DNA of 46,076 nucleotides from Pseudomonadota bacterium (lineage in GTDB: Bacteria; Desulfobacterota; JADFVX01), in contig JADFVM010000320.1 in the NCBI GenBank assembly GCA_015222555.1, positions 1 to 46,076 on the forward strand. Reading direction: 5' to 3'. Positions 12,499 through 46,076 of the stretch are shown one piece after another. The first letter of the stretch is position 1. Each line of letters starts with the position of its first letter. The notes under the pieces are model-generated. The model saw nothing but the letters and a program-made list of their open reading frames with translations. It had not been told where the DNA came from and searched no databases. The position numbers and the translations under genes are program-made.

Positions 12499-12499
12499 T

Positions 12500-13348: not shown

Positions 13349-15123
13349 GTTTGGTTGGCAACCTAGAAGATCTTGGCCTTGGGGATATTCTCCAGATTGT
13401 CAGTCTGAGCAGAAAATCAGGCATCCTTTTTATCAGTGGCGATGATAATGAAGGTAAAATCATTTTTAAGAATGGTCAGGTTATCAGATGCACGGCGACT
13501 GATGTTTTTGAAGACCTGAAGGAGGCGATTTCTTCGTTAGCACTGATTAGCTCTGAACAGCTTGATGAGGCAATGGCCTTGTTTGAAGATAAAAGCTCTG
13601 CTGAGACAATGGATTCAATCCTCACGAAACACTTCGGTGTTTCTCCCGATGACGTTGAGGCATTGAAAAAGGAGAGCATAGAGAAAGCTGCATATTCACT
13701 CTTTTCCTGGCGATCTGGCACCTTTAATTTTGAATTAAAGGATGTTGATAATATTCTGGATTGCAGGAATGATTTTTTCATTTATGAGCACGGAATTAAT
13801 CCTCAGTTCCTTGCAATGGAAGGAACACGCTTGCAAGATGAAATGCAGCGTGATAAAGATGAAAAGAAAGGATTGTCTAAAGAAGCTCCCCTTCAGAAGA
13901 CTCTGGAAAGGGAAGATGAACCTGAGCAACTAGAAGAAGAAAAGTCTATTGCCGAAAAGGTTGAAGAGGTGCCTGTTCCTGAAAGAGCGCCCTTTCCCGT
14001 TGAAGAAAAGAAAAATAAGGAAGCTCAGCCGCTTTCGGCAGCCGTCGATGAAGCGATAGTCATCATTGACGATGACAAAAGCACCCTTGAGAAGATAGAA
14101 AATAGCTTATCTTCCAGGCATTTTAATGTTTTTGTTGAAGAGAAGTCGGAAAATGCCTTACACACCATTAGTCGTCTTGACAATTCAGGGGCGAATATAG
14201 TTGTTGTTTCCGATCTCATTATGCCTCGAATGGATGGTACGGGAATTCTTGGGGGGATTGAGATCCTTGAAGTGTTAAAGGGAGGCTTCCCTAATATACC
14301 GGTTGTTCTTATGAGTGACCATGTCAATAAAGAGGCAGAGACAAGAGCTCACGAGATGGGGGTGAGTTTATACATAGACAAACCGAAAAGATCTGACTTT
14401 GGCGATGCGGCGGAAGAAGAAAAGGTCAGCTTGTTTTTACAAAAGCTGGAAAATGCATTAAGACCATTAATCCTGGGTGAAGAGAGTGTCAGCATTGAAG
14501 ATATCTCAGGAATGATTAACCTTGCCGATGGCCTGGAAGAAGAGTTTGAGGCGGTGGGAAGCATATTGCCGCAAGACAGTGATGACCTTCCCCCGCCATC
14601 GACACCTGGCTTATCAATGTTGAAAACAATGGTTGAGGAGCTTAATAGCCCCGAAGGAAGGAAACAAATCTCTCTTCTAGCATTGCGGTTTGCTTCAGAA
14701 CTAATGAACAGGGCCGTGTTATTCCTTGTTAGAAGTGATAATTTTGAGGGCCTGGGACAGTTTGGTGTAGAAATAGAAAATGACGTCGCTGACAAGAGAA
14801 TCAGGACGATGAAACTTTCAAAAAATGCCCCTTCTATACTGAAAGATGTCCTGGAGTCAGGAGTTAGCATAAAGAAAAAAATGGAAGATACAGAAGGAAA
14901 CAGGTATATTGTGGATCAATTAGGCGGAAAATTTCCCAAAGAATCATATGTAGGTCCAATCATAACGGAAGGAAAAGTTTCAGTCATTGTCTATTGTGAT
15001 AATGTGCCGGAATTTAAAGATATTGGTGATACCTCAGCTTTTGAAATTTTTCTTATACAGGTTGGTGTTGCAATGGAGAGAGGGCTGCTGGAACGAAAAA
15101 TGAGGGAAATTTCAAAAAACTAG
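13345..15123 (+). CDS. DUF4388/PATAN, receiver, GAF-like three-domain response regulator
   Basis: N-terminus LVGNLEDLGLGDILQIVSLSRKSGILFISGDDNEGKIIFKNGQVIRC is the DUF4388 signature. The REC has canonical residues (IIDDD, VVSDLIMPRMDG, LMSD, YIDKP). The C-terminal ~170 aa are GAF-like (RAVLFLVRSDNFEGLGQFG...VIVYCDN). The start overlaps the larE-like stop (ATGA). Confidence 0.8.
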   Translation: MSLVGNLEDLGLGDILQIVSLSRKSGILFISGDDNEGKIIFKNGQVIRCTATDVFEDLKEAISSLALISSEQLDEAMALFEDKSSAETMDSILTKHFGVSPDDVEALKKESIEKAAYSLFSWRSGTFNFELKDVDNILDCRNDFFIYEHGINPQFLAMEGTRLQDEMQRDKDEKKGLSKEAPLQKTLEREDEPEQLEEEKSIAEKVEEVPVPERAPFPVEEKKNKEAQPLSAAVDEAIVIIDDDKSTLEKIENSLSSRHFNVFVEEKSENALHTISRLDNSGANIVVVSDLIMPRMDGTGILGGIEILEVLKGGFPNIPVVLMSDHVNKEAETRAHEMGVSLYIDKPKRSDFGDAAEEEKVSLFLQKLENALRPLILGEESVSIEDISGMINLADGLEEEFEAVGSILPQDSDDLPPPSTPGLSMLKTMVEELNSPEGRKQISLLALRFASELMNRAVLFLVRSDNFEGLGQFGVEIENDVADKRIRTMKLSKNAPSILKDVLESGVSIKKKMEDTEGNRYIVDQLGGKFPKESYVGPIITEGKVSVIVYCDNVPEFKDIGDTSAFEIFLIQVGVAMERGLLERKMREISKN

Positions 15124-15149
15124 AAATATAGTTTTTTAAGGAGGGTTTA

Positions 15150-15521
15150 ATGTCAAAGAATATCCTGATAGTGGAAGATTCCTCCACCATGCGTTCATTA
15201 ATTGTGTCAACACTGGAGCTCCTTGAAGATATTGATATAACAGAATCACCCAGCGGTTTTGAGGCACTCAAAATCCTGCCGCTCAAGAAATTTGACTTGA
15301 TCCTTACCGATATAAACATGCCGGATATTAATGGCCTTGAACTTGTCAGCTTTGTAAAGAATAATCAGGCCTACAAATCAGTTCCCTTAATTATAATTTC
15401 TACAGAAGGTAGCGACAAAGACGTAGAGAGAGGCATGGCTCTGGGTGCTGATGAATACATTAAAAAACCTTTCAAACCGGAAGAACTTCAATCACTTGTA
15501 ACAAAGTATCTTGAAAAATAA
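15150..15521 (+). CDS. cheY: CheY-like single-domain response regulator
   Basis: 123 aa with VEDS, LILTDINMPDINGLE, IIISTEG and YIKKPF. An AAGGAGG RBS lies upstream. Confidence 0.9.
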   Translation: MSKNILIVEDSSTMRSLIVSTLELLEDIDITESPSGFEALKILPLKKFDLILTDINMPDINGLELVSFVKNNQAYKSVPLIIISTEGSDKDVERGMALGADEYIKKPFKPEELQSLVTKYLEK

Positions 15522-15523
15522 GC

Positions 15524-17581
15524 ATGAGCGAAGATAAAGATAAAAATACCCCCTCTGTTATCCCGGCAGAATTTACTTCTGAAGCCGAGGAGATAATCGG
15601 GCAGCTTGGGAGGGACCTGCTTGCTCTCAGTTCGAACAAGGAGGAAGTGGATCCATCTATTCTGAACAGTATTTTCAGGTCAGCTCATACCCTGAAAGGG
15701 CTTTCGGGGATGTTCAGCCTTAACAGGCTCACTGAAGTTAGCCATAATATGGAGAACCTTCTTGATGCCTTACGACTCGGTAAAGTAAGACTCTCTGATG
15801 GACTCGTTGACCTTTTGTTCGAAAGCCTTGACATTATCACCCTTTTGGTCAAAGAAGGCGGCCATGTGAAGGATGACAGCCAGATAATAAAGCTCATGGA
15901 AGACCTTGAAAAGGCCCTTACAGAAGATGGTCAGACATCACAGGAGTCAATTCTCGATTCTCTGAACATAAAAGAAAGTATTCTTGCTGTCCTGACTGAA
16001 TATGAGGAACACCGTCTCCTGGAGGGAATCAGGGCCAATAAAAATATATACGTAATTAATACAACCTTCAGCCTCACCGATTTCGACAAGGGATTAAGCG
16101 ATATAAACGGCACAATCAAGGACTTTGGAGAGGTTATTTCAACGCTTCCCAGTTCTGAGGGAGGGAAAGAGGGAGAAATAGCTTTTGACCTTCTCGTAAG
16201 CTCAACAAAGAGTCTGGACTTCGTCGAGGACGGCCTTTGTGACAGCGGTGCCACCCTAACAATGGTGTCAGGTGGTGAGGATAGAGAAACAATAGCCACG
16301 GAAAGGGTTGAAAAAGATATCCCGCAGGAGAGAGAAAAGCCGAAGGAGAAAGTGGAACTGTCAAAGGAGGAGGAGCCAGCAATCACCTCCATGAAAAGTG
16401 CAAGCCAGACAGTTAGAGTGGACATCTCCAAACTTGACAAGCTTATGAATACTGTAGGAGAACTTTTAATCGCAAAAAGTGTAATTGCTCATATTTCAGA
16501 AGAAGTGAAGTCTACGTCTGTAAACCCTGTTTTGGCAAGTGCCCTTCACAAGGGGAGCAGAGATCTTGGAAGAAAACTGGTTTCTCTGCAGGAGGGCTTA
16601 ATGGAAATCCGCATGGTTTCCCTTGAAAACCTCTTTGATAGATTGGCTGTTACGGTGAGGAAAATAGCAAAGGCACATGCCAAAGAAGTCGATTTAAAGA
16701 TATCCGGCGCCGAGACGAAGCTTGATAAATTAATTATTGAGGAAATTGGTGATCCTCTTATGCATCTCATCAGGAATGCCATTGATCATGGCATTGAGCC
16801 ACTTGTATTGAGAAAAGAGCTTGGCAAGCCGGAAAAAGGGAGCATAAAGTTAAGTGCAAATCAGAGGGGAAATAATGTCACTGTTGAGATTGCCGATGAC
16901 GGCGCTGGAATAGATAAAGAAAACATCTTGAGGAAGGCACGTCAGAAAGGTTTGGTTTCCGAGGACCGCGAACTCGATGATGATGAGATTATGGACCTTA
17001 TTTTTATGCCTGGATTTAGCACAAGTGCGGAAATCAGTGAAATATCAGGCCGTGGCGTTGGTATGGATGTTGTGAAAAATAACCTAACCAAAATTAGTGG
17101 TCACATCGATATTGACAGTGAAAAAGGAAAGGGCTCAAAGATAACTATAAGCCTTCCCATTACCTTAGCTATTTTACAGGCTGTCATTGTAGAAACATCT
17201 TCAAGGATTTATGCTATTCCGCTCCACTCGGTTCAGGAGAGTTTATTAATTGTGGCCGATGACGTAGAAACGGTGGAAAAAAGAGAAGTCCTGAAGTACA
17301 GATCCATCACTCTTCCACTGGTACGATTGGAGGACGTTTTTGGACTTTCCAGATCTGATGCAAATTCAAAAGAGCTGTATGTTGTTGTTATTGCCATTGC
17401 ACAACATAAATTTGGAATCGTTGTTGATGCTGTTATTGGTGAACAGGATATTGTTATAAAATCAATTGGAGAAATCTTTAGCAATATAAAAGGTGTTGCA
17501 GGGGCAACCGACCTGGGCAACAATGAGATTATTCTTGTCTTGGATGTAGCCTCTATTATTGAAGAAATATCTGGAGGATAA
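15524..17581 (+). CDS. cheA: Chemotaxis histidine kinase CheA
   Basis: Hpt motif SAHTLKGLSGMF, N-box HLIRNAIDHG, G1 DDGAGID, F-box PGFSTS, G2 GRGVGMDVV and a C-terminal CheW-like domain. Confidence 0.95.
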   Translation: MSEDKDKNTPSVIPAEFTSEAEEIIGQLGRDLLALSSNKEEVDPSILNSIFRSAHTLKGLSGMFSLNRLTEVSHNMENLLDALRLGKVRLSDGLVDLLFESLDIITLLVKEGGHVKDDSQIIKLMEDLEKALTEDGQTSQESILDSLNIKESILAVLTEYEEHRLLEGIRANKNIYVINTTFSLTDFDKGLSDINGTIKDFGEVISTLPSSEGGKEGEIAFDLLVSSTKSLDFVEDGLCDSGATLTMVSGGEDRETIATERVEKDIPQEREKPKEKVELSKEEEPAITSMKSASQTVRVDISKLDKLMNTVGELLIAKSVIAHISEEVKSTSVNPVLASALHKGSRDLGRKLVSLQEGLMEIRMVSLENLFDRLAVTVRKIAKAHAKEVDLKISGAETKLDKLIIEEIGDPLMHLIRNAIDHGIEPLVLRKELGKPEKGSIKLSANQRGNNVTVEIADDGAGIDKENILRKARQKGLVSEDRELDDDEIMDLIFMPGFSTSAEISEISGRGVGMDVVKNNLTKISGHIDIDSEKGKGSKITISLPITLAILQAVIVETSSRIYAIPLHSVQESLLIVADDVETVEKREVLKYRSITLPLVRLEDVFGLSRSDANSKELYVVVIAIAQHKFGIVVDAVIGEQDIVIKSIGEIFSNIKGVAGATDLGNNEIILVLDVASIIEEISGG

Positions 17582-17587
17582 CGAGAT

Positions 17588-18394
17588 ATGTATGAAGAAT
17601 ATTATGGCCTGAAGTCTCGTCCTTTCAGCAAAACACCGGATCCAAAATTTCTTTTTATGAGTAAGGAGCACAATGAGGCCCTTGCCCGATTGCAATATGG
17701 TGTTGAAGAAAGAGAACTTGTTTTAATGACTGGGGAAATTGGTACAGGAAAGACGACACTTTCCAGAGCGCTAATAGATACCTTAGATGAAAATTTTAAA
17801 CCCATTCTCATTATCAATCCCAGACTCAGTCCTACACAGTTCCTCAAACTTCTCGCAAAGAGGCTTGGAATAGAAAAACCAAGTTATTTTAAGGCTGATC
17901 TTGTTGAAGAAGTGAGTGAAGCGCTCTACTCTCATTACGAAAAAGGGATATGTCCCGTTATTATCATCGATGAAGCTCAACTGATTCCCGGCAAGGGAAC
18001 CTTTGATGAGATCAGGCTGTTGACTAACTGTCAGCTCGATGATCAGAGCCTGTTTTCCCTCATTTTGATCGGCCAGCCTGAACTGAGAAAAAGGCTTGCG
18101 AAAAAGCATTATGAGCCTCTTTTGCAAAGGGTAAGCATTCATTATCATTTAAAGCAACTTGATTTTGATGAAACATGCAGTTACATAAAACACCGTCTTA
18201 GTGTGGCGGGTACTGATGACGAAATATTTACGGAAGAGGCACTTGAAGAAATATTCAAATATTCTGAAGGCGTCCCCAGAAAAATCAATAATCTTGCTGC
18301 AAATTCGCTTCTGGAGGGATTTGGAAAGGAAGTGAGCCCCATAGGCCGGGATGTTGTTTTTGATGTAGCACAAGACATGTATCTAGTTGATTAG
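17588..18394 (+). CDS. ExeA/GspA/MshM-like AAA ATPase (short form, no TM or peptidoglycan-binding domain)
   Basis: YYGLKSRPFSKTPDPKFLFMSKEHNEALARLQYGV is the typical ExeA N-terminus. Walker A is GEIGTGKT and Walker B VIIIDEAQ. GQPELRKRL and the RV...L block are also present. It sits 6 nt after cheA and 9 nt before cheW. Confidence 0.85.
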   Translation: MYEEYYGLKSRPFSKTPDPKFLFMSKEHNEALARLQYGVEERELVLMTGEIGTGKTTLSRALIDTLDENFKPILIINPRLSPTQFLKLLAKRLGIEKPSYFKADLVEEVSEALYSHYEKGICPVIIIDEAQLIPGKGTFDEIRLLTNCQLDDQSLFSLILIGQPELRKRLAKKHYEPLLQRVSIHYHLKQLDFDETCSYIKHRLSVAGTDDEIFTEEALEEIFKYSEGVPRKINNLAANSLLEGFGKEVSPIGRDVVFDVAQDMYLVD

Positions 18395-18403
18395 GAGCTG
18401 AAA

Positions 18404-19186
18404 TTGGATCTCGTTGAAATAAGGAAAAAGGCCAAAGCGCTTAAAGATAATAAAGCCAAAGACGGTTCGAAGGCTAAGGAGAAAAAAAGTGCCAGGAAGA
18501 CCGTCGAGGAAAAGGTGGAAGAAAAGCCGCTTGCCTTCGATTTGACAGAGACTGATGCAAATGAAATAGAAAAGCTTGAGGGCATTGAAGAGACAGCTTT
18601 TGCAGATGACTCCGTACCTACAGATGAGATCGTCGAAGATCAACTTGTAAACCCTGCAGAGGAAGAAGAACCTTCAGATTTTCTTACACGTGCTATGAAT
18701 GCCCTCTATGAGCAAAGTCTGGAGAAGGAGCAAAATGGCGCCCTTGAAGAGGAGGAGGATGACGAAAAACTGGAATATCTCTGCTTCATGCTTTCAGATG
18801 AAGAATATGCACTTGATATCAAGGAGCTAAGAGAGGTCATAAATGTAATAAAAGTTACTGAAGTCCCAAAGACGCCGTCCTATGTTATCGGCATTATTTC
18901 ATTACGGGGTAATGTTATACCTCTATTTGACTTGAGAATGAGATTGGGCCTTGAAGGTCGTCAATATGATTCGAAGACAAGGATTCTAGTTGTCTCAAAT
19001 AATGGCGCCAGCATGGGACTTGTCGTTGACAGGGTGACGGAGGTTGTAAAGCTAAGCAAAAGTGCATTGGAAGCACCACCGACCTTAATCAATACGGTTA
19101 ATGCAGATCTGTTGGAAGGTGTTGGAAGATATAATGACAGATTATTAATTATCCCAAACCTGACAAAGGTTTTAACGTTAAATTAA
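18404..19186 (+). CDS. cheW: CheW-domain coupling protein with a ~125-aa charged N-terminal extension
   Basis: The C-terminal 135 aa are CheW-like (EYLCFMLSDEEYALDIKELREV...IISLRGNVIPLFDLRMRLG...MGLVVDRVTEV). The N-terminus is K/E/D-rich low complexity. TTG start with an AGGAG RBS 7 nt upstream. Confidence 0.85.
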   Translation: MDLVEIRKKAKALKDNKAKDGSKAKEKKSARKTVEEKVEEKPLAFDLTETDANEIEKLEGIEETAFADDSVPTDEIVEDQLVNPAEEEEPSDFLTRAMNALYEQSLEKEQNGALEEEEDDEKLEYLCFMLSDEEYALDIKELREVINVIKVTEVPKTPSYVIGIISLRGNVIPLFDLRMRLGLEGRQYDSKTRILVVSNNGASMGLVVDRVTEVVKLSKSALEAPPTLINTVNADLLEGVGRYNDRLLIIPNLTKVLTLN

Positions 19187-19224
19187 TGATAAACATAGTA
19201 CTCTAACTTTGCGGATGTGAATTA

Positions 19225-19728
19225 ATGAGTGATGAAATTCTAAGTATTAGTGACGTCGCTGACAGCGAGGTTCAATTGGCAGTCTTTTTTATCGATGAGG
19301 AAAGATATGCAATCGACATTATGAAGATCAAAGAGATTGTTAAACCGATGAAAACGACTCCCCTCCCTGATGTGCCGGACTTTATTAAAGGTGTTATTAA
19401 TTTGAGAGGCGTGGTGCTTCCCGTTATTTCAATGCGAGAAAGATTTGGTCTGTCTCATGAGGAAACAGAAGAGTCCAGAATTATAATTATTGGTTTGAAA
19501 AAAATAACTGTTGGAATACTTGTAGATGCCATTGAGGAAGTCATTACTATCCCCTTGAAGGATGTGAAGCTGCCTCCTAAAATAGCCAAAGGCGTGGACT
19601 CTACATATTTGAAGGGTATCTGCAGACTGGGGGAGGACGTCCTTGTCCTTCTGGATTTGGATAAAATATTAACATCTGTCGAGAAGGTTATGGTCGATGA
19701 ATTGAAGAAAAAGGATTCTTACCGATGA
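19225..19728 (+). CDS. cheW: CheW coupling protein (canonical size)
   Basis: 167 aa with QLAVFFIDEERYAIDIMKIKEI, VINLRGVVLPVISMRERFG and VGILVDAIEEV. Confidence 0.9.
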   Translation: MSDEILSISDVADSEVQLAVFFIDEERYAIDIMKIKEIVKPMKTTPLPDVPDFIKGVINLRGVVLPVISMRERFGLSHEETEESRIIIIGLKKITVGILVDAIEEVITIPLKDVKLPPKIAKGVDSTYLKGICRLGEDVLVLLDLDKILTSVEKVMVDELKKKDSYR

Positions 19729-20005
19729 CATTTTTCACGGGCTGTTGCCCAAGCCTGTTTTGTGCTTACACAGGCTCAGCATGACAGGAAAATAACAATT
19801 ATTTAGTAACTTAGAAATAATATACTGCGATTTTTTGGTAGAATATTATTTTTTTGAAGGCACTTACACCCCTCAAGGGGGTACTGAAAATAGTCCGGTT
19901 CATCCGGGTCAGTATTAAAGAGTCACCTGTAGTCTGCTCTGAGTTTACCGAAGAGCAAGTCGAAGGGGGGATTTATTTGGGCAATATCCGTTTAATATAA
20001 ACACC

Positions 20006-20034
20006 TTGCCTTGTAAAAGGTTTTTGCTAATAAT
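20006..20034 (+). promoter_or_regulatory. Candidate sigma-70 promoter (TTGCCT-N17-AATAAT) for the mcp-to-cheB half of the cluster
   Basis: Pattern match only, with 4/6 at -35 and 5/6 at -10. It lies in the 353-nt gap inside the che cluster. Confidence 0.3.
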
Positions 20035-20081
20035 CAGCCTCGGAAAGCTATGGGGAAATGGAGTTGCATAGGAGGTTTCTC

Positions 20082-22172
20082 ATGTTCGGCTTAAAACTTA
20101 AAGCGCAGATAACGCTGGTTATGCTTGGTGTCATGTCCGCAATCGTTATACTGCTTTTCGTAATTCTTGAAAATAACTTTTCCAGGAATTACAATGAATT
20201 ATCTCAGGCAAAAGGCCGCATTATTGTCGACCTCCTGGAAAAAGAGATCGCAAGGTATTCCTCGGCGGGAACATCTCTGGCTCCCATGGCAGGCCTGAAT
20301 GAAGTATGTCAAGAAATGGTGAATCAATATGAAGACATAGGATATGCCCTCGTTACCGATGCAAAGGGGCAGATTCTCCATCATAATGTCCCTGCTGAAA
20401 TCGGTAATAACCGGGCCAGTGGGTGGATCAAAACGGTAACAGACAGATCAGGGAAGGGTGAACTAATTCAAAAAATGAGCATGTATGGAAGTAACTATTA
20501 CGACATAACAAGGCCACTAATAGGGACTGACAATAAGCTAATAGGTTATGCATCAATTGGTATGGATGCAACGGTAGTATCCGACAAGCTTAAAGACATC
20601 TTTCCCAATCTGCTGGTTATCATCATTGTTGCTCTTCTCCTGGTGGCTGTTGTGGTATTCTTTTTTTGGAGGAAAGTTGTTTGGCCTTTAGAAAAACTCA
20701 TAGAGAGAGTATCTGAGTTAGGAAAGGGTGATATAGATCTTTCCAAAGGATTAGACCTCACCTCACATGATGAAATCGGTGAGCTTGTAGATTGTTTGAA
20801 CATCTATACAAAAAATGTGCAAAGAAAGATTGCCAAATCCTGGGAATCGATCGATATTATCAATGAAATTTCCGGAAAAATTGTCGAGAATATGGAAAAG
20901 GTCAGTGTTGGCGTAGAACAGCAGTATTTAGCCGCAGAAAACACCTCTTCATCAATTGAAGAGATGAATTCCAGCCTTGGTGAAATTGCCGGAAACATAG
21001 AAAACCTTTCATCAACGACTGAAGAAGCCTCTTCATCAATTCTGGAAATGGCTGCATCAATCGTGGAAGTGGCAGGTATTGCAGAAAATGTTTCTGAATC
21101 TGTCGATGGCACGTCTTCATCAATAGAGGAAATGACAATTTCAATCAAAGAGATTGCATCCATTTCAGATGAACTCGCCTCTTCGTCCGATAGAACCATC
21201 GCCTCCATTGAACAAATTAACGCTTCCATCAACGAAGTAGACAGGTCTTCAAAGGCCTCTTCAGAAGTTGCCGAGGAAACGGCTGATCATGCCGAGAAAG
21301 GGATGGTTGCCGTCGAAAAAACGATAGAAGGGATGAATCAAATCAAATTTTCAATCGATGAGACGGTCGGCATCATTGAGACGCTTAAGGAAAAGTCTGA
21401 GAGCATTGGAGAGATACTCACTGTAATCGATGAAGTTGCAGAACAGACAAATCTTCTTGCACTGAATGCCGCTATCATTGCAGCTCAGGCGGGTGAACAT
21501 GGAAAAAGTTTTGCTGTCGTTGCCGAAGAAATTAAGGAGCTCTCCGAGCGCACCGCCATGTCTACAAAGGAAATCTCAACGTTAATACAATCTCTTCAGA
21601 ATGAGGCAGTTAATGCTGCCAAAGCAATGGATCAGGCTTCGGAAAATGCCGTAATCGGAGTTGAGCTATCACGGGAGTCAGGCGTCTCCCTGGAAAAAAT
21701 TCTCTGGAGTGCAAGTAAATCAAAGGACATGACGATACAAATAGCATCAGCCACGTTAGAACAGTCAAAGGGTAGCAGTCAGGTCAAGGAAGCGATGGAG
21801 AATGTTAATCATCTTATAATGAGAGTTGCAAAAGCAACACAGGAGCAATCTAAAGGGAGTGAGATGATCATTCAGGCAACAGAGTCAATGAAGGATGCTA
21901 CAGGTCACGTGAAGAGGGCAACTCAGGAACAATCCAAAGGAGGTAAGCAGATTACGCAGGCCATAGAAAATATCACCAACATGACTAATTTCGTAAATAA
22001 TGCAACTCGCGAACAGGCAACGGGTGTTGGTTATATCGTAGAGTCTGTTGAAAATATAAAAAAGCTTTCCGAAGATTATGGGACTGTTATTGATGAAATG
22101 AATAAAACTGTTAATTCACTGATCGCACAAACTGACCTTCTAAAGACCGAAATAAAGGAAAATAGATCTTAG
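20082..22172 (+). CDS. Methyl-accepting chemotaxis protein with a ~150-aa extracytoplasmic sensor region and HAMP domain
   Basis: TM1 is [18 protein letters not shown] and TM2 [20 protein letters not shown], followed by a HAMP-like [21 protein letters not shown]. The tip is [34 protein letters not shown]. The ATG at 20082 has a GGAGG RBS 6 nt upstream; the ORF-track start at 20058 is the alternative. Confidence 0.9.
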
Positions 22173-22218
22173 ATTAATGTCTTTGAACCTAAATATGAAA
22201 GAGAAAACCCTATAATTT

Positions 22219-23070
22219 ATGAAAATAACCTGTCCATCATGTAAGATGTCATTCAACGTAAGGGATGATAAGATTCCTGGTGATGAAAGTAAGTTAAGAT
22301 GTTTCAATTGTAAGGAAGTGTTTCTTCACAACAAAGGGAGTGAAGAAAAGCCTCTCATTTTGGTTGCTAATGAAAGTAGGGAGTTCTGTGAAACAGTAAC
22401 TGATCTTCTTGTAAAAAAGAACTATGAAGCTAAATTCGTTAATGACGGTGTTGATGCGCTCATGATGGTTCAGGAGATGCGTCCGGCCGTTGTTCTCCTT
22501 GATGTCGCTTTGCCAAGAATGTTTGGTTTTGAAGTATGTGAAACTATTCGAAATACAGAAGAGATAAGGGACACAAAAATTCTGTTGATTGCAGCTATCT
22601 ACGACCAAACGAGATATAAAAGAGCGCCTGTTACACTATACGGCGCTGATGACTATATAGAAAAACATCATATCCATGATCTCCTCATTAAAAAGATTGA
22701 AAATCTTCTATCGGAATCTCCAGTAGAAAAGGTCTTGCCCGAAGCTGTTCACAGCAAAGATCCCCTGGCCTCTAATTTGGATGGGGAGGCTCTGGCAAAG
22801 AAACTCGATGAAAGTTCCGCTGGATTTGAGGAAGAAGAACACGAGAAGGCTAAAAGGTTGGCCCGCATAATTGTGTCAGATATTGCGTTATATAATGAAC
22901 ACCTGCTTAATGAAGGTGTAGATAATAATTACCTTGAACTATTTAAAGAGGACTTAGAAGAAGGTAAACAATATTTCAGAGAGAGAGTGTCCCGGGAGAT
23001 TTGGGAGAAACGGGATTACATTATAGAGTTCTTTAATGATTTAATTGCAAAACATACAAAATCGAATTAA
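22219..23070 (+). CDS. MJ0042-type zinc-ribbon, atypical receiver, uncharacterised C-terminal helical domain
   Basis: The N-terminus MKITCPSCKMSFNV...LRCFNCKEVF provides two CxxC pairs. The REC-like core is LILVANESREF...VVLLDVALPRMFGFE...DDYIEKH. The C-terminus is AKRLARIIVSDIALYNEHLL. Confidence 0.7.
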   Translation: MKITCPSCKMSFNVRDDKIPGDESKLRCFNCKEVFLHNKGSEEKPLILVANESREFCETVTDLLVKKNYEAKFVNDGVDALMMVQEMRPAVVLLDVALPRMFGFEVCETIRNTEEIRDTKILLIAAIYDQTRYKRAPVTLYGADDYIEKHHIHDLLIKKIENLLSESPVEKVLPEAVHSKDPLASNLDGEALAKKLDESSAGFEEEEHEKAKRLARIIVSDIALYNEHLLNEGVDNNYLELFKEDLEEGKQYFRERVSREIWEKRDYIIEFFNDLIAKHTKSN

Positions 23071-23085
23071 CAGGACATTATCCAT

Positions 23086-25089
23086 ATGATTGATTTAGAA
23101 AAAATAAAATCGCTGATAGGGAATGCCGATGAAGATTTGCGTATTAAGGGGCTTAAATATCTGAAGGAAAGTCAGAACAGTTCAGCGCTTGAACTTCTAA
23201 CGAGCGCTCTGGGTGATGATAGCTGGAGAGTCCGGAAAACAGCCGTAGAAATAATGACTGATTATAGTGATGTAGAATCTCTTCTCCCCTACCTTCTTGA
23301 GTCTTTAAGGTGTGAAGACAATGCAGGTATGAGAAATTCTTCTGCTGAGGTATTAGAGATACTGGGCAGGAAATCAGCCAATTACCTGGTCCAGTTTGTT
23401 GACGATGAAGATCACGATCTCAGGAAGTTTGTTATAGACATCCTTGGAAATATAGGGGATAAAATCGCCACGCCTTATCTTATAAAGGCCCTTTCAGATG
23501 ATGACGAAAATGTAAAGTCATCAGCCGCAGAAAGCCTTGGAAAAATAGGTGACGATAAAGCAGTGAACTCGCTCATTGATTCGTTGGCAAATAATGACCT
23601 TTTATTGCAATTCTCTGCTCTTGAAGCCCTCTGCAAAGCAGGCAAAGGTCTTCCTGTTTCAAAAATAGCTATTCATCTGAATAATCCCCTCTTAAAAAAA
23701 GCAGCCTATGACGTCCTTGGTGTGTCTAATGATATTGAAGCTCTGCCTTATCTTCTTAAAGGCCTGGAAGATCGATCTAAGGGTACGAGAAAGGCTGCCC
23801 TGAAGAATCTGGTAACACTGTTTGAAAGAATGACGGTCGATAAAAATGAAGCAAAGGCCATGCTTGAAGAGAAAAAAACAATCATTTCCGGAGTTGCTGC
23901 TTCCTTTCTTGAAAAGGAAGATGAAGAAACTGTTGCTGCCGCGATTAAACTGCTCGGCTGGATTAAACATAAACAGTCGATAAAGGAAATACTACCATGG
24001 TCTTCTTTTGAGACCCTGGCACCTCTCGTTACGGAGGTCATATCAGACATTGGCCTTGATGGTCAGGCAGAACTCATTGATGCCTATTTAAAAAGCGATG
24101 ATGTCTTAAGACCTTATATCTGTTCAATGTTGGGCGAAATAGGAGCTCAAAACGCTGTGGATCTCTTAATCGAAGCATTGAGGAATGATGTGGGACACAT
24201 CAGGCATTCAAGTGCTATTTCTCTTGGCAAACTCCGTGACCAAAGAGCAATTAAACCTCTTATGCCCTTATTTGAAGATGATTATGGGGATGTGCAGGAG
24301 GCGGCAGTGATAGCTTTTTCATATCTTGCAGGAGAACACAGAGATGCAGTCCTGGCTGTGCTGAAAAACTACATTAATTCTGAATCGTTCTCTATCCGGC
24401 GTAACTGTGTGAAGGTCCTGTCAAACCTGGGAAAAAAAGGAGATTTTAGCCTTGCTCTGACTGCTTTAAGAGATGAAGAAGGCTCCATAAGGAAGAATGC
24501 TGTTGAAGCCTTGGGTGCCTTGGGTGGCGATGAGGCTGTCAGTCCTCTTATCCTTTCACTTAGTGACGAGGAAAGAGATGTGAGGATAGCCGGCATCGAA
24601 TGCCTCGGTAAGATGAAGTGTAAAGAGAGTCTAAAACCGCTTTTAACCGGATTGTATGACGAGGATATCTGGGTAAAGAGCGCGGCAATCAGAGCCGTTG
24701 CTTCAATCGGTGAAGGGGATGTGGCAGATCAACTCACTCAATTACTTAATGATGGTGTTGGTCTCATTGTCATTGTTGCTCTTGAAGCTCTGGGTAAGCT
24801 GGCTCTTGATGAAACTGTTCCTGCAATGATGAATGCAATGGAAAATGAAGATAACGAAGTCGTTAAAGCTGCCGTGGAAAACATGTCATTTAGTGAAGAT
24901 GAAACATATCTCACTAAACTTATGTCCTTCATTGATCATAAAAACTGGGAAATTAGAGTGGCTGCAATAAAGGTTCTCTCTGAAAAAAACGTTAAAGGAT
25001 TAAAAGAGATGTTAAGCAAGAGGCTTGATCTTGAAGATGATGACCTTGTAATTTCTTCAATTAATGAAGCCCTTTCAAACTTAACTTAA
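23086..25089 (+). CDS. HEAT-repeat (PBS-lyase-like) protein
   Basis: 667 aa built from about 30-aa repeats of the type D(E/D)xxxVRxxAaxaLGxiGdxxAvxxLixaL (for example DDSWRVRKTAVEIM, DEDHDLRKFVIDILGNIGD, DDDENVKSSAAESLGKIGDDKAV, EEGSIRKNAVEALGALGGDEAV). Confidence 0.85.
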   Translation: MIDLEKIKSLIGNADEDLRIKGLKYLKESQNSSALELLTSALGDDSWRVRKTAVEIMTDYSDVESLLPYLLESLRCEDNAGMRNSSAEVLEILGRKSANYLVQFVDDEDHDLRKFVIDILGNIGDKIATPYLIKALSDDDENVKSSAAESLGKIGDDKAVNSLIDSLANNDLLLQFSALEALCKAGKGLPVSKIAIHLNNPLLKKAAYDVLGVSNDIEALPYLLKGLEDRSKGTRKAALKNLVTLFERMTVDKNEAKAMLEEKKTIISGVAASFLEKEDEETVAAAIKLLGWIKHKQSIKEILPWSSFETLAPLVTEVISDIGLDGQAELIDAYLKSDDVLRPYICSMLGEIGAQNAVDLLIEALRNDVGHIRHSSAISLGKLRDQRAIKPLMPLFEDDYGDVQEAAVIAFSYLAGEHRDAVLAVLKNYINSESFSIRRNCVKVLSNLGKKGDFSLALTALRDEEGSIRKNAVEALGALGGDEAVSPLILSLSDEERDVRIAGIECLGKMKCKESLKPLLTGLYDEDIWVKSAAIRAVASIGEGDVADQLTQLLNDGVGLIVIVALEALGKLALDETVPAMMNAMENEDNEVVKAAVENMSFSEDETYLTKLMSFIDHKNWEIRVAAIKVLSEKNVKGLKEMLSKRLDLEDDDLVISSINEALSNLT

Positions 25090-25124
25090 AATTATTATTT
25101 AATTTCACCTGTAAGAGGCTGTTC

Positions 25125-26006
25125 GTGCAAAATCCTGATCAAATTGTTGAGATGTCAGACGAGGAGTTCCGTGCAATACGGGACTATATTAACAACCAAT
25201 GTGGTTTATATTTTGATTTGCCTTCGAAGTATTTGCTTGAAAAAAGACTCTCCAGAAGGGTCCATGAACACCGCCTTTCAAGCTTTAAGGAATATCATTA
25301 TTATCTCCGATATGATAAAAACAGCGTCGATGAGTTAAACAAAATTACTGATATCCTCACAACAAATGAAACTTATTTCTACAGGGAGGCTTACCAGCTT
25401 CTGGCTTTCAAGGATGAGATTCTGCCTGAAATTCATGCGATAAAGAAGGACAAAAAGTTGACAATCTGGAGTGCCGGCTGCTCCACTGGCGAGGAGCCTT
25501 ATACTCTTGCCATGTTAATAATCTTATCAAACCTGTTCTCCGACTGGAGGGTAGAGGTTGTTGGCAGTGATATCTCACAGAGGGTGCTCCATGCGGCAAG
25601 GCGGGGTATTTATTCTGATTCCTCTTTTCGCACGATGCCGGAAGAATATAAAAATAGATTTTTTACTAAAGGTGACGATGGAAAGTTTCATGTTATTGAT
25701 GAAGTAAAGGAGATGGTTACCTTTGGGAAGGTCAATCTCCTTGACAGCAAGATGCTAAACCTGATTCCTAGTATTGATATCATATTTTGCAGAAATGTTA
25801 TTATATATTTTGATCTTGAGACTAAAAAGAAGGTTGTCGAAAACTTTTATGAGAAATTAAATGACGCTGGTTATTTGCTTTTAGGTCACTCAGAGTCATT
25901 GATGAGCATTTCAACGTCCTTCAAATTAAAGCATTTAAAAAATGATATGGTTTATCAAAAGCCTCTTATCGAAGACTCCTTAAAAGTCCTTAAAGGGGGC
26001 GATTAA
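25125..26006 (+). CDS. cheR: Chemotaxis protein methyltransferase CheR
   Basis: EFRAIRDYINNQCGLYF and TNETYFYRE are present. The SAM motif is IWSAGCSTGEEPYTLAM, and there are also IFCRNVIIYFD and GYLLLGHSES. GTG start with an AAGAGG RBS. Confidence 0.9.
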   Translation: MQNPDQIVEMSDEEFRAIRDYINNQCGLYFDLPSKYLLEKRLSRRVHEHRLSSFKEYHYYLRYDKNSVDELNKITDILTTNETYFYREAYQLLAFKDEILPEIHAIKKDKKLTIWSAGCSTGEEPYTLAMLIILSNLFSDWRVEVVGSDISQRVLHAARRGIYSDSSFRTMPEEYKNRFFTKGDDGKFHVIDEVKEMVTFGKVNLLDSKMLNLIPSIDIIFCRNVIIYFDLETKKKVVENFYEKLNDAGYLLLGHSESLMSISTSFKLKHLKNDMVYQKPLIEDSLKVLKGGD

Positions 26007-27062
26007 ATGGAAAAAACGAGAGTGCTCGTTATAGATGATTCAGCGTATAACAGAAGGGCATTGGCCGAGATGCTGGAAAAATCATCAGGGATTGAAGTTG
26101 TTGGAACTGCCCCTGATGGTGAACAGGGATTAAAAAAGGCCTTAATGCTTAAACCTGACGTCATTACTCTTGATCTTGAAATGCCGATCATGGATGGATT
26201 TACTTTTTTACGTTTGCTGATGGTAAAAATGCCTACACCCGTGATTGTGATCAGCGCAAGAGATCATGATGCCAACGTCTTTAAGGCCCTTGAGCTTGGT
26301 GCTGTTGACTTTTTGTCTAAACCGACAGCCAGAATTTCAAAGGAATTGATGAATATTGAAAATAACCTGATCTCGAAAGTTGAAGTCCTGTCGAATTTAA
26401 GCATGGATAATGTTACGAAGCGGATGGAAGGTCATGTAGATACTGCCCCCCCCCAAACCGACATTAAAGGTGAAAAAAAGAGAAAAGAAAAGTTTGAGGT
26501 CATGGCAATCGGCTCTTCGACAGGTGGGCCACCGGCCTTGCAGAGCCTCTTTACTTCCTTGCCTCCGGAATTTCCTCTTTCAATTGTCGTCTCTCAACAT
26601 ATGCCGCCAGGTTTTACCGGAGCCTTTTCTAACCGTCTCGATAGGCTTTTACCTTTCGATGTGAGTGAAGCTAAAAGTGGAGACAAAGTTGTCAAGGGAA
26701 GGATACTCATTGCACCCGGTGGTCACCATATGACATTTAAAAAAGTCAAGGGTGGAGTTGAAGTTGAGATCAGTGAACGAGACGGTAATGATATTTACGC
26801 ACCTTCTGTGGATAAGATGTTTACTTCTGTGGCCGAAATTTTTGAAGAAAGAGCCATAGGTGTTATTTTGACGGGTATGGGAAATGATGGTAAAAATGGT
26901 GTAAAGAAGATCAAAAGATCAAAGGGCTATATTATTGCCGAATCTGAAGAGACAGCAATTGTTTATGGTATGCCGAGAGAAGCGGTTAATGCCGGCGCTG
27001 TAGATAAAATTCTTCCCCTCAATGATATTGGTAGCCAGGTATGCAAGCTTAGTGACAACTGA
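26007..27062 (+). CDS. cheB: Chemotaxis response regulator protein-glutamate methylesterase CheB
   Basis: The REC has VIDDS, VITLDLEMPIMDG, VISA and FLSKP. The catalytic domain has AIGSSTGGPPAL, SQHMPPGFT, IAPGGHHM, PSVDKMF, LTGMGNDG and YGMPREA. Confidence 0.95.
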   Translation: MEKTRVLVIDDSAYNRRALAEMLEKSSGIEVVGTAPDGEQGLKKALMLKPDVITLDLEMPIMDGFTFLRLLMVKMPTPVIVISARDHDANVFKALELGAVDFLSKPTARISKELMNIENNLISKVEVLSNLSMDNVTKRMEGHVDTAPPQTDIKGEKKRKEKFEVMAIGSSTGGPPALQSLFTSLPPEFPLSIVVSQHMPPGFTGAFSNRLDRLLPFDVSEAKSGDKVVKGRILIAPGGHHMTFKKVKGGVEVEISERDGNDIYAPSVDKMFTSVAEIFEERAIGVILTGMGNDGKNGVKKIKRSKGYIIAESEETAIVYGMPREAVNAGAVDKILPLNDIGSQVCKLSDN

Positions 27063-44147: not shown

Positions 44148-44338
44148 AGACTCAAATTTTGAATTCAAATGGAGTGGATAACATGTGACCAACTATGAAT
44201 TGTTTTCATGATCTGATAAAGTTTTCATGGCATTTTCAAGATTCCTTTAAAATTCGTTTAGAAAGTTACGCCATCAATTAGAAAAAATAATCTGACATAA
44301 CAATATCTTATGCAAACAATCTGATTTTCCTCTTATTC

Positions 44339-44354
44339 GTGGCACCTTCATTGC
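44339..44354 (+). promoter_or_regulatory. Sigma-54 (RpoN) -24/-12 promoter TGGCAC-N5-TTGCA
   Basis: Exact match to TGGCAC-N5-TTGCW, with the GG-to-GC spacing of the consensus. It lies about 270 nt upstream of the ATG at 44624 and about 35 nt upstream of the riboswitch P1 stem. Confidence 0.65.
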
Positions 44355-44389
44355 AATAAGATACTTTAGTTTAGCAGTTAGCATTTTCA

Positions 44390-44511
44390 CTCTGTAAAGA
44401 GCAAACCAGGAGAAATCCTGGGACGCAGAGCCACGGGGCTAAGAAAGTTGTTTAAAATGAGGAAGAAATCTTTCCATTTATTTCACTTTCAAGTCTGCCG
44501 AGCCGCCAGAG
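44390..44511 (+). promoter_or_regulatory. c-di-GMP-I (GEMM-I) riboswitch aptamer
   Basis: The core GCAAACC-AGGA-GAAA-TCCT-GG-GACGCAGAGCC (44401-44432) matches the conserved GEMM-I core. P1 is CTCTG/CAGAG (44390-94 / 44507-11). The second helix pairs CGG-GGCT with AGTC-tg-CCG and is extended by GAAAGT/ACTTTC and GGAAG/TTTCC. Confidence 0.8.
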
Positions 44512-44536
44512 AAATTAATCTCAGGCGGTTTTTTTT
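44503..44536 (+). terminator. Intrinsic terminator serving as the riboswitch expression platform
   Basis: CCGCCAGAG-aaattaat-CTCAGGCGG followed by T8. The 5' arm contains the P1 3' strand CAGAG. Confidence 0.8.
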
Positions 44537-44623
44537 GCACTTTTTTTGTAAAAGGAAGACCTGATGTAATGGTTAAAAGTATAAAAAAACTTTAAGAATT
44601 AAGTTACGTATGAGGAGGTTGTT

Positions 44624-46075
44624 ATGTCATCATCAAATTTATTACTCCAATGGTCGAGTCAAGCGGCGACCTCTATTTTAATATGGATTGTCATTGCAGT
44701 CATTCTCTTGTACGCTGCTCGCAAGCCGGCCCATGAATTAATTTTTTCTCTTTGCAGATTAATTCACAATGCCTTAAGAGTTGCAGGCCGATCTATTATG
44801 ATTGCAGAAAAGAAACTCGCAGACCGTAACAGGGAAGTCCTTCTTGCCGCCGGCGAAGAATCTGTTCAACGATTAATAGAACGTGAATTCCATCGGGTCA
44901 ATGCCGTCGTCAGCCGTGACCTGAGTGGGTATCCTGCCTTTCAGCGTTCATTGAAAGATCAGATTACACGGATCGATGAAGATTACCAGAAAAGCGTTGA
45001 AATTCCACCTTCACCACCGGGCTGGATGCCTGCTGTTGAAGCGGTGGCCAAAATTCCACCCACAGGTGATACGATGGTGGCCAATATTCTGAAAGATATC
45101 AATAAATCAATAGATAAACAACATAACAGGGCTATTGAAGAATATCGCAAGGCAAGCACTGTAAGGCATACTCTTCTTAAAAAGATGATGCCCTTCTGGC
45201 GAAAAATGTCTAATACTCTGGATGAAGTGGATAAGACCATTTCAGGCCTCCTTGAGCGCTCCAAATTCATCGACAGCAAGATGGAAGAGTATGAGCAGAT
45301 CAGAAAGGGCTCTGACAAAGCGGTACGGACGCTGTCATCTTCCTCTATGACTCAATTTGTTATTTCAGGTTTTGTTCTGCTAATAGCGATTGGCGGCGCC
45401 GTGATTAACTTCAATCTTATTGCCTTGCCTATGTCTGAAATGGTCGGCGGCAGCAGCTATATTGGCGGCTTCAAAACCTCAAATGTTGCTGCCATGGTAA
45501 TCATTCTTGTCGAGGTTGCCATGGGCCTCTTCCTTATGGAATCACTTCACATAACCAAGCTCTTTCCCATCATCGGGAGCATGGATGATAAAATGCGGCG
45601 CCGCATGGTCTGGATTTCTTTTTCCATTTTATTTATCCTTGCCGGTATTGAATCGTCACTGGCCTATATGCGTGACATAATCGCCGCCGACATGCAGGCA
45701 TTAAGACAATCCCTGGCTGATGTTACCGCTTCCGGTGAGGTTTCTGGTAGCTGGATCCCCACGGCAGGTCAAATGATAATGGGTTTTATCCTGCCCTTTG
45801 CACTGACCTTTATTGCTATCCCGCTTGAGTCCTTTATTCATTCATCCAGAACGGTTTTAGGTGTTTGTATGGTGGGATTGCTAAGGGTGAGCTCATTTTT
45901 ATTAAGGCTATTTGGGAACATTTCAAGATCAGCAGGTGTAATGTCTGTAGCGATATACGATCTGATTGTCTTTGCGCCTTTGTGGTTCGAGGGGCACCTT
46001 CGTGGTATGAGTAATAAAAAAGGCGAAAAGGCCGATACTTCAGTTGAACATGTTGAGAATGGAGAAATATCATGA
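44624..46075 (+). CDS. Uncharacterised polytopic membrane protein (N-terminal TM, ~200-aa helical soluble region, then about 6 TM segments)
   Basis: 483-aa ORF with a GAGGAGG RBS. Hydrophobic segments include ILIWIVIAVILLYAA, FVISGFVLLIAIGGAVINF, VAAMVIILVEVAMGLFLM, MVWISFSILFILAGI, MIMGFILPFALTFIAIPL and GVCMVGLLRVSSFLL. I recognise no family. The next ORF starts at 46072 (ATGA overlap) and leaves the window. Confidence 0.8.
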   Translation: MSSSNLLLQWSSQAATSILIWIVIAVILLYAARKPAHELIFSLCRLIHNALRVAGRSIMIAEKKLADRNREVLLAAGEESVQRLIEREFHRVNAVVSRDLSGYPAFQRSLKDQITRIDEDYQKSVEIPPSPPGWMPAVEAVAKIPPTGDTMVANILKDINKSIDKQHNRAIEEYRKASTVRHTLLKKMMPFWRKMSNTLDEVDKTISGLLERSKFIDSKMEEYEQIRKGSDKAVRTLSSSSMTQFVISGFVLLIAIGGAVINFNLIALPMSEMVGGSSYIGGFKTSNVAAMVIILVEVAMGLFLMESLHITKLFPIIGSMDDKMRRRMVWISFSILFILAGIESSLAYMRDIIAADMQALRQSLADVTASGEVSGSWIPTAGQMIMGFILPFALTFIAIPLESFIHSSRTVLGVCMVGLLRVSSFLLRLFGNISRSAGVMSVAIYDLIVFAPLWFEGHLRGMSNKKGEKADTSVEHVENGEIS

Positions 46076-46076
46076 A

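Follow-up and report, generated by a model that had tools for sequence, protein, structure and literature searches.

The 3′ end of contig JADFVM010000320.1 (assembly GCA_015222555.1, a Pseudomonadota bacterium placed by GTDB in the Desulfobacterota lineage JADFVX01) carries a GEMM-I riboswitch aptamer, an intrinsic terminator and, on the same strand, a gene for a 483-amino acid (aa) membrane protein whose last bases overlap the start of a second gene (Table 1). We refer to the 46,076 nucleotides (nt) of this contig as the window. The open reading frame (ORF) of the membrane protein lies exactly where the original prediction, a reading of this DNA made from the sequence alone, had placed it, with the same ATG start and ATGA overlap: the stop codon (TGA, 46073–46075) shares bases with the next ATG (46072–46074), and the window ends at 46076. 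Because the window is the whole contig, the downstream operon was read from relatives, with L001, a syntenic locus 90% identical to the window, standing in for the missing downstream gene. The locus comparisons cover 84 loci, those of the best ~80 relatives of the membrane-protein gene among ~550 species loci.

Table 1. Features at the 3′ end of the window and in related loci.
Feature	Location	Strand	Basis or detail
Candidate sigma-70-like promoter, CTGACA-17-AACAAT	44292..44320	+	Consensus scan, 9/12 matches, weak
GEMM-I aptamer	44390..44510	+	Rfam RF01051 (c-di-GMP-I), 57.9 bits vs gathering score 35, E 7e-9
Intrinsic terminator, stem GAGCCGCC.AGAG / CUCA.GGCGGUUU, then U8 (44529-44536)	44500..44536	+	RNA folding
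Shine-Dalgarno sequence GAGGAGG, 5 nt 5′ of ATG	44612..44618	+	Sequence reading
Membrane-protein gene, ATG start, 483 aa	44624..46075	+	ORF scan
Overlapping downstream gene, first 5 nt (ATGAA = M-K...), cut by contig end	46072..46076	+	Sequence; orthologous loci
Predicted order: periplasmic N-terminus, first transmembrane helix (TM1), cytoplasmic helical domain (33-240), six transmembrane helices, cytoplasmic acidic tail	483-aa protein		
P0129 fusion gene	L087 1925-3982; L088 2169-4226		
Aptamers in position-20/junction covariation	Window 44400/44432; L002 6268-6362; L040 2509-2593; L066 1659-1851; L077 4853-4933		
Aptamers in position-20/junction covariation, rest	L073 467-551; L082 44-128; L084 4519-4603		

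The 483-aa protein is a member of a large undescribed family that is absent from Pfam. A homologue search of 5.8 billion proteins (cut-off E ≤ 1e-3) returned 5,695 homologues, none with a Pfam domain and nearly all named “hypothetical,” and an exhaustive HMMER search of cluster representatives yielded 785 clusters at 50% identity. Alignments stay full length (~470–500 aa) down to 27% identity; thus, both the thousands of homologues and their full-length conservation indicate that the ORF is a real gene. The family occurs in at least 547 species-level genomes, mainly those of Desulfobacterota (Desulfobacterales, Syntrophobacterales, Desulfuromonadales, and Geobacteraceae) and metagenome-assembled genomes of Nitrospirota, and distant members are encoded by cultured Gammaproteobacteria (Thioalkalivibrio, Ectothiorhodospira, Thiohalospira, and Gynuella).

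The earlier statement that this protein has no recognizable family held up across Pfam, NCBIfam, PADLOC, PDB sequence and profile searches, and Foldseek, and no confident match to a known transporter-type family emerged. Pfam gave no significant match (best E 0.07), the best NCBIfam score was far under the cut-off, and phmmer against the PDB returned nothing significant (E 0.96). A Pfam scan of 59 diverse family members, one by one, revealed no match in common, and Foldseek with the predicted structure found no significant neighbor (best E 0.03, TM-score <0.2). The PADLOC defense-protein models, which include cGAMP (cyclic GMP-AMP)-using anti-phage systems such as CBASS effectors, matched neither the membrane protein nor the product of the downstream gene. 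A PDB profile search with the 59-sequence alignment produced AT1R matches (22 bits), which we rejected as compositional because they cover transmembrane (TM) segments only. Prominin, the tweety homologue TTYH2 and MscK bear only a weak likeness to the protein, in that long helices extend from TM segments in all of them; the scores (Pfam Prominin E 0.23; Foldseek TTYH2 E 0.07–0.2 and MscK E 0.2–0.4) were treated as noise, as none is significant, TM-scores are below 0.2, and the soluble domain lies on the opposite side of the membrane. One NCBI homologue is labeled “YwqI/YxiC family protein,” a name supported by none of the searches made. Unusually long family members contain no informative domain fusion beyond the one described below and otherwise carry low-complexity tails.

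Hydropathy places an N-terminal TM segment at residues ~17–32, a charged helical stretch at 33–240 and six later hydrophobic segments at ~243–268, 287–308, 328–349, 380–402, 409–431, and 436–455, followed by an acidic tail. The AlphaFold model is all helical (predicted local distance difference test, pLDDT, 67.6), with the cytoplasmic domain modeled better than the membrane domain. Both lines of evidence agree with the topology first proposed from the sequence (one TM segment, a charged region of ~200 aa, about six TM helices and an acidic tail). From the positive-inside charge distribution, residues 33–240 are predicted to be cytoplasmic and the loops at 269–286 and 350–379 periplasmic. Conservation across all family members includes the membrane-embedded acidic residues E306 and D446 together with several cytoplasmic Arg, Trp, and Tyr residues, a pattern that would suit a membrane protein that handles ions or a substrate, or transduces a signal, and is regulated through its cytoplasmic domain. 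We also observed a motif echo between the ends of TM2 and TM5 (IALPMSE, 266–272; IAIPLES, 397–403), both with an invariant Pro and Glu. This hints at an ancient 3+3 TM duplication, to which hhalign assigns a probability of 0.2%.

The original prediction of an operon of which the membrane-protein gene is the first member is borne out by the related loci, whereas the generic further ORF that it placed downstream can now be given an identity from orthologues, fold and a natural fusion. In L001, the same ATGA opens a 213-aa ORF, which is followed by a DUF167/YggU gene. Members of this ~215-aa partner family lie directly 3′ of the membrane-protein gene and on the same strand in 74 of the ~82 loci with downstream sequence at hand, usually with overlapping stop and start codons, and the adjacency is still present at 45% identity. 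The N-terminus of the partner (MKK..LLVFFIG-C16) contains a lipobox with an invariant C16 and gives a weak LPAM_1 match, and we predict a lipoprotein with a lipoprotein signal peptide. The L001 partner was modeled with good scores (pLDDT 82; predicted TM-score, pTM, 0.82) as a Rossmann-like alpha/beta von Willebrand factor A (VWA) fold. Foldseek against the PDB gave 81 matches at E ≤ 1e-3, and all 50 top listed are VWA structures with probability 1.0 (best E 1.6e-6), among them BatA/BatB, ITIH1, Cav alpha2delta, CLCA1, integrin I-domains, the pilus adhesin SpaC, and TRAP. The residues of a metal-ion-dependent adhesion site (MIDAS; D31-x-S33-x-T35, T112, D140) are invariant in 41 partner homologues and sit at the expected strand ends in the model.

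In profile searches, the L002 orthologue scores 24 bits against Pfam VWA_2, under the gathering score of 27 (E 6e-5), three other orthologues have no match, two partner homologues carry a precomputed PF13519 annotation, and several homologues bear the NCBI name “VWA domain-containing protein.” With the partner as query, a profile search of the PDB returned nothing at E ≤ 0.01; the VWA assignment is therefore based on the fold together with the MIDAS residues and the sub-threshold Pfam matches. On this basis, the downstream gene, as modeled, encodes a small VWA-fold lipoprotein with a complete MIDAS metal site. Its best structural matches are BatA/BatB of the Bacteroides aerotolerance operon (PDB 4jdu and 3ibs; E 1.6e-6 and 3e-5), which are likewise bacterial, membrane-associated and poorly understood. 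However, identity is 12–15%, and the Bat VWA proteins have TM helices of their own rather than being lipoproteins paired with a 7-TM protein. None of the other Pfam families that go with Bat operons (MoxR ATPase, DUF58, and TPR) turned up in the loci examined.

In two independent metagenome assemblies, membrane protein and VWA lipoprotein are naturally fused into one polypeptide of 685 aa (P0129). The fusion argues for a physical partnership, and the VWA lipoprotein is almost certainly a partner of this kind. P0129 retains the hydrophobic signal segment of the lipoprotein as a linker, which fits a membrane-protein C-terminus inside and a VWA domain outside. The fusion gene adjoins genes for a MauG-type di-haem peroxidase and a PadR regulator. 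Membrane proteins without a partner also exist, in Thioalkalivibrio, Gynuella, and Ectothiorhodospira, and the lipoprotein therefore appears to be an accessory component. The first periplasmic loop (N262-FNLIALPMSEMVGG-276, with flanks to A290) is invariant in partnered family members, whereas residues 262–290 are degenerate in four gammaproteobacterial members that lack the partner. If the MIDAS face docks on the membrane protein, this loop is thus the most likely place.

The Rfam match of the window aptamer is full length (model positions 1–87), and the aptamer scores 83 bits with a GEMM-I covariance model that we built from seven aptamers and ran against all loci. It comprises a hairpin with a GAAA tetraloop (CCAGGA-GAAA-UCCUGG) and a second hairpin with a 37-nt extension, with a G-C closing pair and AGAG at the helix junction. 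The ligand-pairing C (equivalent to C92, at ~44506) and the intercalating A (equivalent to A47) are kept (GACGC-A-GAG; ...GCC-G-CC-AGA). Across 12 leaders of the membrane-protein family, 14 of 21 pairs are changed on both sides and 91.7% of cells are paired; none of 500 shuffles reached the observed score, and slid controls collapsed.

The element had first been described as a leader responding to c-di-GMP (cyclic diguanosine monophosphate). The GEMM-I aptamer is upheld by Rfam, but the c-di-GMP label is doubtful on account of a single base. In the Rfam alignment, the window has an A at 44400 (AAAG-A-GCAAACC), unpaired and just 5′ of the first helix, at the position of G20 in the Vc2 RNA, which reads one guanine of c-di-GMP (PMC6140456). 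The cGAMP-binding GEMM-Ib riboswitches have A at this position, and both ligands are bound by the Vc2 G20A mutant as well as by several A20 RNAs that occur in nature (PMC6140456). Thus, “c-di-GMP leader” is not a safe label, and the signal may not be c-di-GMP. We consider that the ligand is probably a cyclic dinucleotide with at least one G, either cGAMP or both cGAMP and c-di-GMP.

The GEMM-I aptamers found before members of the family include seven with A20 and three with G20. Position 20 covaries strictly with the second junction nucleotide (44400 and 44432 in the window): A20 always occurs with GC-AGAG (seven aptamers) and G20 always with GC-AAAG (three). The A20/AGAG aptamers may represent a distinct specificity subtype. 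For comparison, AAAG is found both in the validated cGAMP-selective pilM RNA, where it goes with A20 and a flipped C-G closing pair, and in the c-di-GMP Cd1 RNA, where it goes with G20 and a G-C pair (supplement, PMC9262584). Gs1761, likewise validated as selective, shares with pilM the C-G closing pair next to A20 and the AAAG junction (C15-G40, A41, and A42 in its numbering; PMC6274999).

The terminator hairpin has a folding energy of −18.3 kcal/mol (z −3.65) and is also present in the minimum free energy structure of the whole leader. Its 5′ arm (44500–44507) is the reused 3′ strand of the aptamer, ligand-pairing C included, an overlap repeated in the A20-type leaders of L002, L040, L066, and L077. 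Aptamer and terminator would therefore be mutually exclusive, and we predict an ON switch in which the ligand induces the operon. The pilM cGAMP riboswitch is a validated ON switch of the same layout, in which the terminator sequesters the ligand-pairing C (PMC9262584), and in G. sulfurreducens all GEMM-Ib-controlled genes fall upon deletion of the cGAMP synthase gene (PMC6456294). Metatranscriptome fragments of the membrane-protein gene, from one dataset only, are 92–94% identical and therefore derive from a relative; they cannot tell termination from read-through. The promoter is no more than a candidate, because 9/12 matches arise readily in AT-rich sequence such as this. From the SixA-like gene to the aptamer (44148–44389, ~240 nt), conservation between the window and L001 is ~90%, about as high as in the coding regions. 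This may reflect a promoter or other regulatory sites, or only close relatedness.

With the Geobacter GEMM-Ib riboswitches (pilM of G. metallireducens; Gs1761/pgcA of G. sulfurreducens), the window leader shares the GEMM-I fold, A20, the ligand-pairing C, a Desulfobacterota-type host and a transcriptional ON-switch design in which the terminator 5′ arm sequesters the aptamer 3′ strand. It differs from pilM in its G-C closing pair, which is as in c-di-GMP aptamers (pilM: C-G/U-G), and in AGAG rather than AAAG. The window pocket resembles that of the engineered Vc2-G20A RNA, which binds both ligands. The canonical c-di-GMP-I riboswitches (Vc2, Cd1; RF01051) have in common with it both hairpins, the GAAA tetraloop, the A47 and C92 equivalents and a score above gathering; unlike these, the window has A at the G20 site, and its platform is predicted to be ON whereas that of Cd1 is OFF.

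Whether orthologues also lie behind GEMM-I elements had been raised as a check; some do, and the refuting outcome named with it, orthologues that never go with such elements, did not occur. A same-strand upstream GEMM-I aptamer is present in 10 of 69 informative loci, each with >450 nt of upstream sequence (the window, L001, L002, L009, L040, L066, L073, L077, L082, and L084; the L009 aptamer is cut by the contig end), and the large majority have none. Six of the ten are found independently by Rfam above the gathering score (the window, L002, L066, L073, L077, and L082). The riboswitch-bearing loci fall at no fewer than five separate places on the membrane-protein tree and include both A20 and G20 types.

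Individual leaders vary in architecture. L066 has tandem A20-type aptamers (1659–1748 and 1764–1851; 64.5 bits each with Rfam) followed by one overlapping terminator. Tandem pairs have been reported for Geobacter cGAMP riboswitches too. The L001 aptamer (1341–1499, orthologous to window 44390–44510) has a 38-nt insertion in the first hairpin that seems to break the GAAA tetraloop hairpin; it is under the Rfam gathering score and reaches 55.6 bits with our own model. For the G20-type aptamer of L082 (45–129), the best model is the variant RF03167 (c-di-GMP-I-GGC; 68.5 bits vs gathering 59) rather than RF01051.

Taken together, these observations could be explained if the window ends at the start of a cyclic-dinucleotide-induced operon for a two-protein envelope module, a reading that we favor but hold tentatively, as a possible one. 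The regulatory part of this reading is well supported: without ligand, the terminator would form and transcription would halt before the membrane-protein gene; with ligand (3′,3′-cGAMP, c-di-GMP or both), the aptamer would hold its 3′ strand and RNA polymerase would read through. The cargo, too, is established: the first product is a 7-TM inner-membrane protein with a ~200-aa cytoplasmic helical domain, and the second, translationally coupled, a small lipoprotein consisting of a VWA domain with a complete MIDAS. The mechanism is a proposal. The lipid-anchored VWA domain would lie in the periplasm, its MIDAS metal docked on the invariant first periplasmic loop; on the model of alpha2delta/Cav and CLCA1/TMEM16A, its role would be that of an auxiliary or regulatory subunit. 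In those systems, the MIDAS engages an acidic residue in a loop of the channel. As in Cav alpha2delta and CLCA1, a VWA domain that lies outside the cytoplasm, is tethered to the membrane and has its MIDAS intact here goes together with a polytopic membrane protein; it is nonetheless an analogy only, as the partner VWA shares 15–18% identity with theirs and neither Cav nor TMEM16 is related to the bacterial membrane protein. The membrane protein itself would do the work, most likely as an ion-conducting, transporting or transmembrane-signaling unit, and the module would alter the cell envelope as the dinucleotide rises in surface-associated growth. A bolder version, which we consider very unlikely in full, is that of a new complex: a dinucleotide-induced 7-TM ion-conducting or signaling protein gated by MIDAS-VWA docking in the manner of alpha2delta/Cav or CLCA1/TMEM16A, controlled by a hitherto unrecognized GEMM-I specificity subclass defined by A20, G-C, and AGAG.

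Several observations weigh against the reading as an induced envelope module. The window pocket (A20, G-C, AGAG) matches neither that of pilM nor that of Cd1, and would thus be a third type, nearest to the dual-ligand Vc2-G20A context. The membrane domain was modeled with low confidence (pLDDT 40–70, pTM 0.43), no transporter-type internal repeat was detected by hhalign of the membrane-domain and cytoplasmic-domain halves (probability <2%), and “channel or transporter” is a guess from the conserved buried acidic residues, because the membrane model is of low confidence and there is no structural neighbor. E272 of the candidate docking loop is retained in three of the four partner-less members, which weakens the idea that this residue exists for MIDAS binding. 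Finally, ~85% of orthologous loci have no GEMM aptamer, and an Rfam scan of the long leaders of riboswitch-less orthologues found no other known RNA element. Dinucleotide control would therefore be lineage-specific, and the family not an obligate regulon member.

In an alternative that we consider distinctly unlikely, the riboswitch link is incidental and a housekeeping envelope cassette came under a GEMM-I leader in a few lineages with no specific dinucleotide role. It would account for the 59 of 69 informative loci that lack the aptamer, for its absence from six extra loci taken from mid-distance and distant members, and for neighboring genes that are otherwise heterogeneous. Yet the ten loci are independent at the species level, with the same riboswitch class directly upstream in at least five lineages, in two subtypes and, in L066, in tandem. 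Such recurrence is far above chance for an element with roughly a dozen copies per genome (G. sulfurreducens has 17; PMC6456294), and repeated acquisition or retention argues for selection for dinucleotide control. The gene neighborhoods offer a different role for the module, as an envelope-morphogenesis or peptidoglycan scaffold whose cytoplasmic domain recruits cytoskeleton-type proteins (RodZ-like HTH_25, ParA/MinD-like ATPase, bactofilin) and whose VWA lipoprotein contacts wall factors, so that wall remodeling is positioned or regulated without ion or solute transport. The riboswitch-controlled operon of L002 (6441–7983 ahead of the cassette) consists of genes for a ParA/MinD-like P-loop ATPase, an HTH_25 (RodZ-type) protein, the membrane protein, the VWA protein and DUF167, and sits within an exopolysaccharide cluster (Wzy, Wzz, Poly_export); in L009, an HTH_25 gene (140–439) precedes the cassette and overlaps the start of the membrane-protein gene. 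Other clades have same-strand M23 peptidase and bactofilin genes (11 and 9 loci) or LysM genes (8 loci), and SH3_3 proteins occur near the loci of one Desulfobacterota clade and in the distant gammaproteobacterial L086 and L091. Each neighbor type is, however, limited to one clade and may be a single inherited gene order, the VWA partner alone is conserved family-wide, and the window has none of these neighbors but genes for a PabA-like amidotransferase and a SixA-like phosphatase directly upstream of the riboswitch. A pure scaffold would also leave the buried, conserved E306 and D446 unexplained, and we regard this role as unlikely.

The VWA/MIDAS module is a classic adhesion module, and the Foldseek matches to integrin I-domains, SpaC, and TRAP would suit a lipoprotein that is itself the effector, a surface or outer-membrane adhesin that binds a substratum or another cell through its MIDAS, with the membrane protein as its anchoring, export or inside-out-signaling partner. 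The candidate effector of the sessile/motile switch in the original prediction would correspond to this role and is speculative. Ala, rather than Asp, follows the lipid-modified Cys, which in E. coli would favor sorting to the outer membrane, although the rule may not hold in these phyla. In one clade, moreover, a PilZ-domain gene lies three genes upstream, and genes for pili, cytochromes, polysaccharide and surface proteins are frequent in GEMM-I and GEMM-Ib regulons (PMC6456294). Set against this, the partner is a bare VWA domain of ~190 aa with no stalk, repeats or other adhesin features, and the partner-less members point to a function of the membrane protein on its own. The natural fusion ties the VWA domain directly to the inner-membrane protein, which is hard to square with a cell-surface site and makes a pure adhesin role less likely; overall, we judge an adhesion module to be improbable.

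Cyclic-dinucleotide riboswitches mark genes that are switched on at commitment to surface-associated life, and most of the “hypothetical” genes in such regulons have never been studied. One such target is now a conserved two-protein module, known from at least 547 species and common among the Desulfobacterota and Nitrospirota of sediments, cold seeps and the subsurface, with a predicted architecture that can be tested (topology, MIDAS partner, candidate docking loop and buried acidic residues). The riboswitch class itself is known; what is new is the cargo family and, possibly, the aptamer subtype, and a search of the literature for GEMM-controlled genes of VWA proteins or lipoproteins found nothing relevant. 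Signaling networks drawn from Rfam matches alone call for caution, since this leader departs from the textbook c-di-GMP sensor. A dinucleotide-induced channel with a VWA auxiliary subunit, if true, would be a new envelope mechanism; otherwise, the family is well delimited, can be curated and lends itself to genetics in cultured relatives.

Some further features of the related loci and of the window can be noted. In a Desulfobacterales clade without the riboswitch (L054, L058, L070, and L081), same-strand genes for PilZ, DUF4124, and DUF2914 precede the cassette, and MFS and LysM genes follow it; the PilZ gene is a possible further link to c-di-GMP. No GGDEF, EAL or HD-GYP domain was detected in the 20 largest ORFs of the window that were scanned. 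Elsewhere in the window lie genes for a fumarate-reductase-like set, a sigma-54 activator, TrkAH, UvrC, two tRNAs and peptidases. The contig originates from cold-seep and marine-sediment metagenomes, and contigs in other runs extend past the window end. A large chemotaxis-like cluster (11479–27062) includes two DUF4388 (PATAN)+receiver proteins, CheA with a C-terminal CheW domain, methyl-accepting chemotaxis proteins, a 667-aa HEAT-repeat protein, CheR, and CheB. A separate receiver-DUF4388-DnaJ-TPR protein is encoded on the minus strand at 848–2932.

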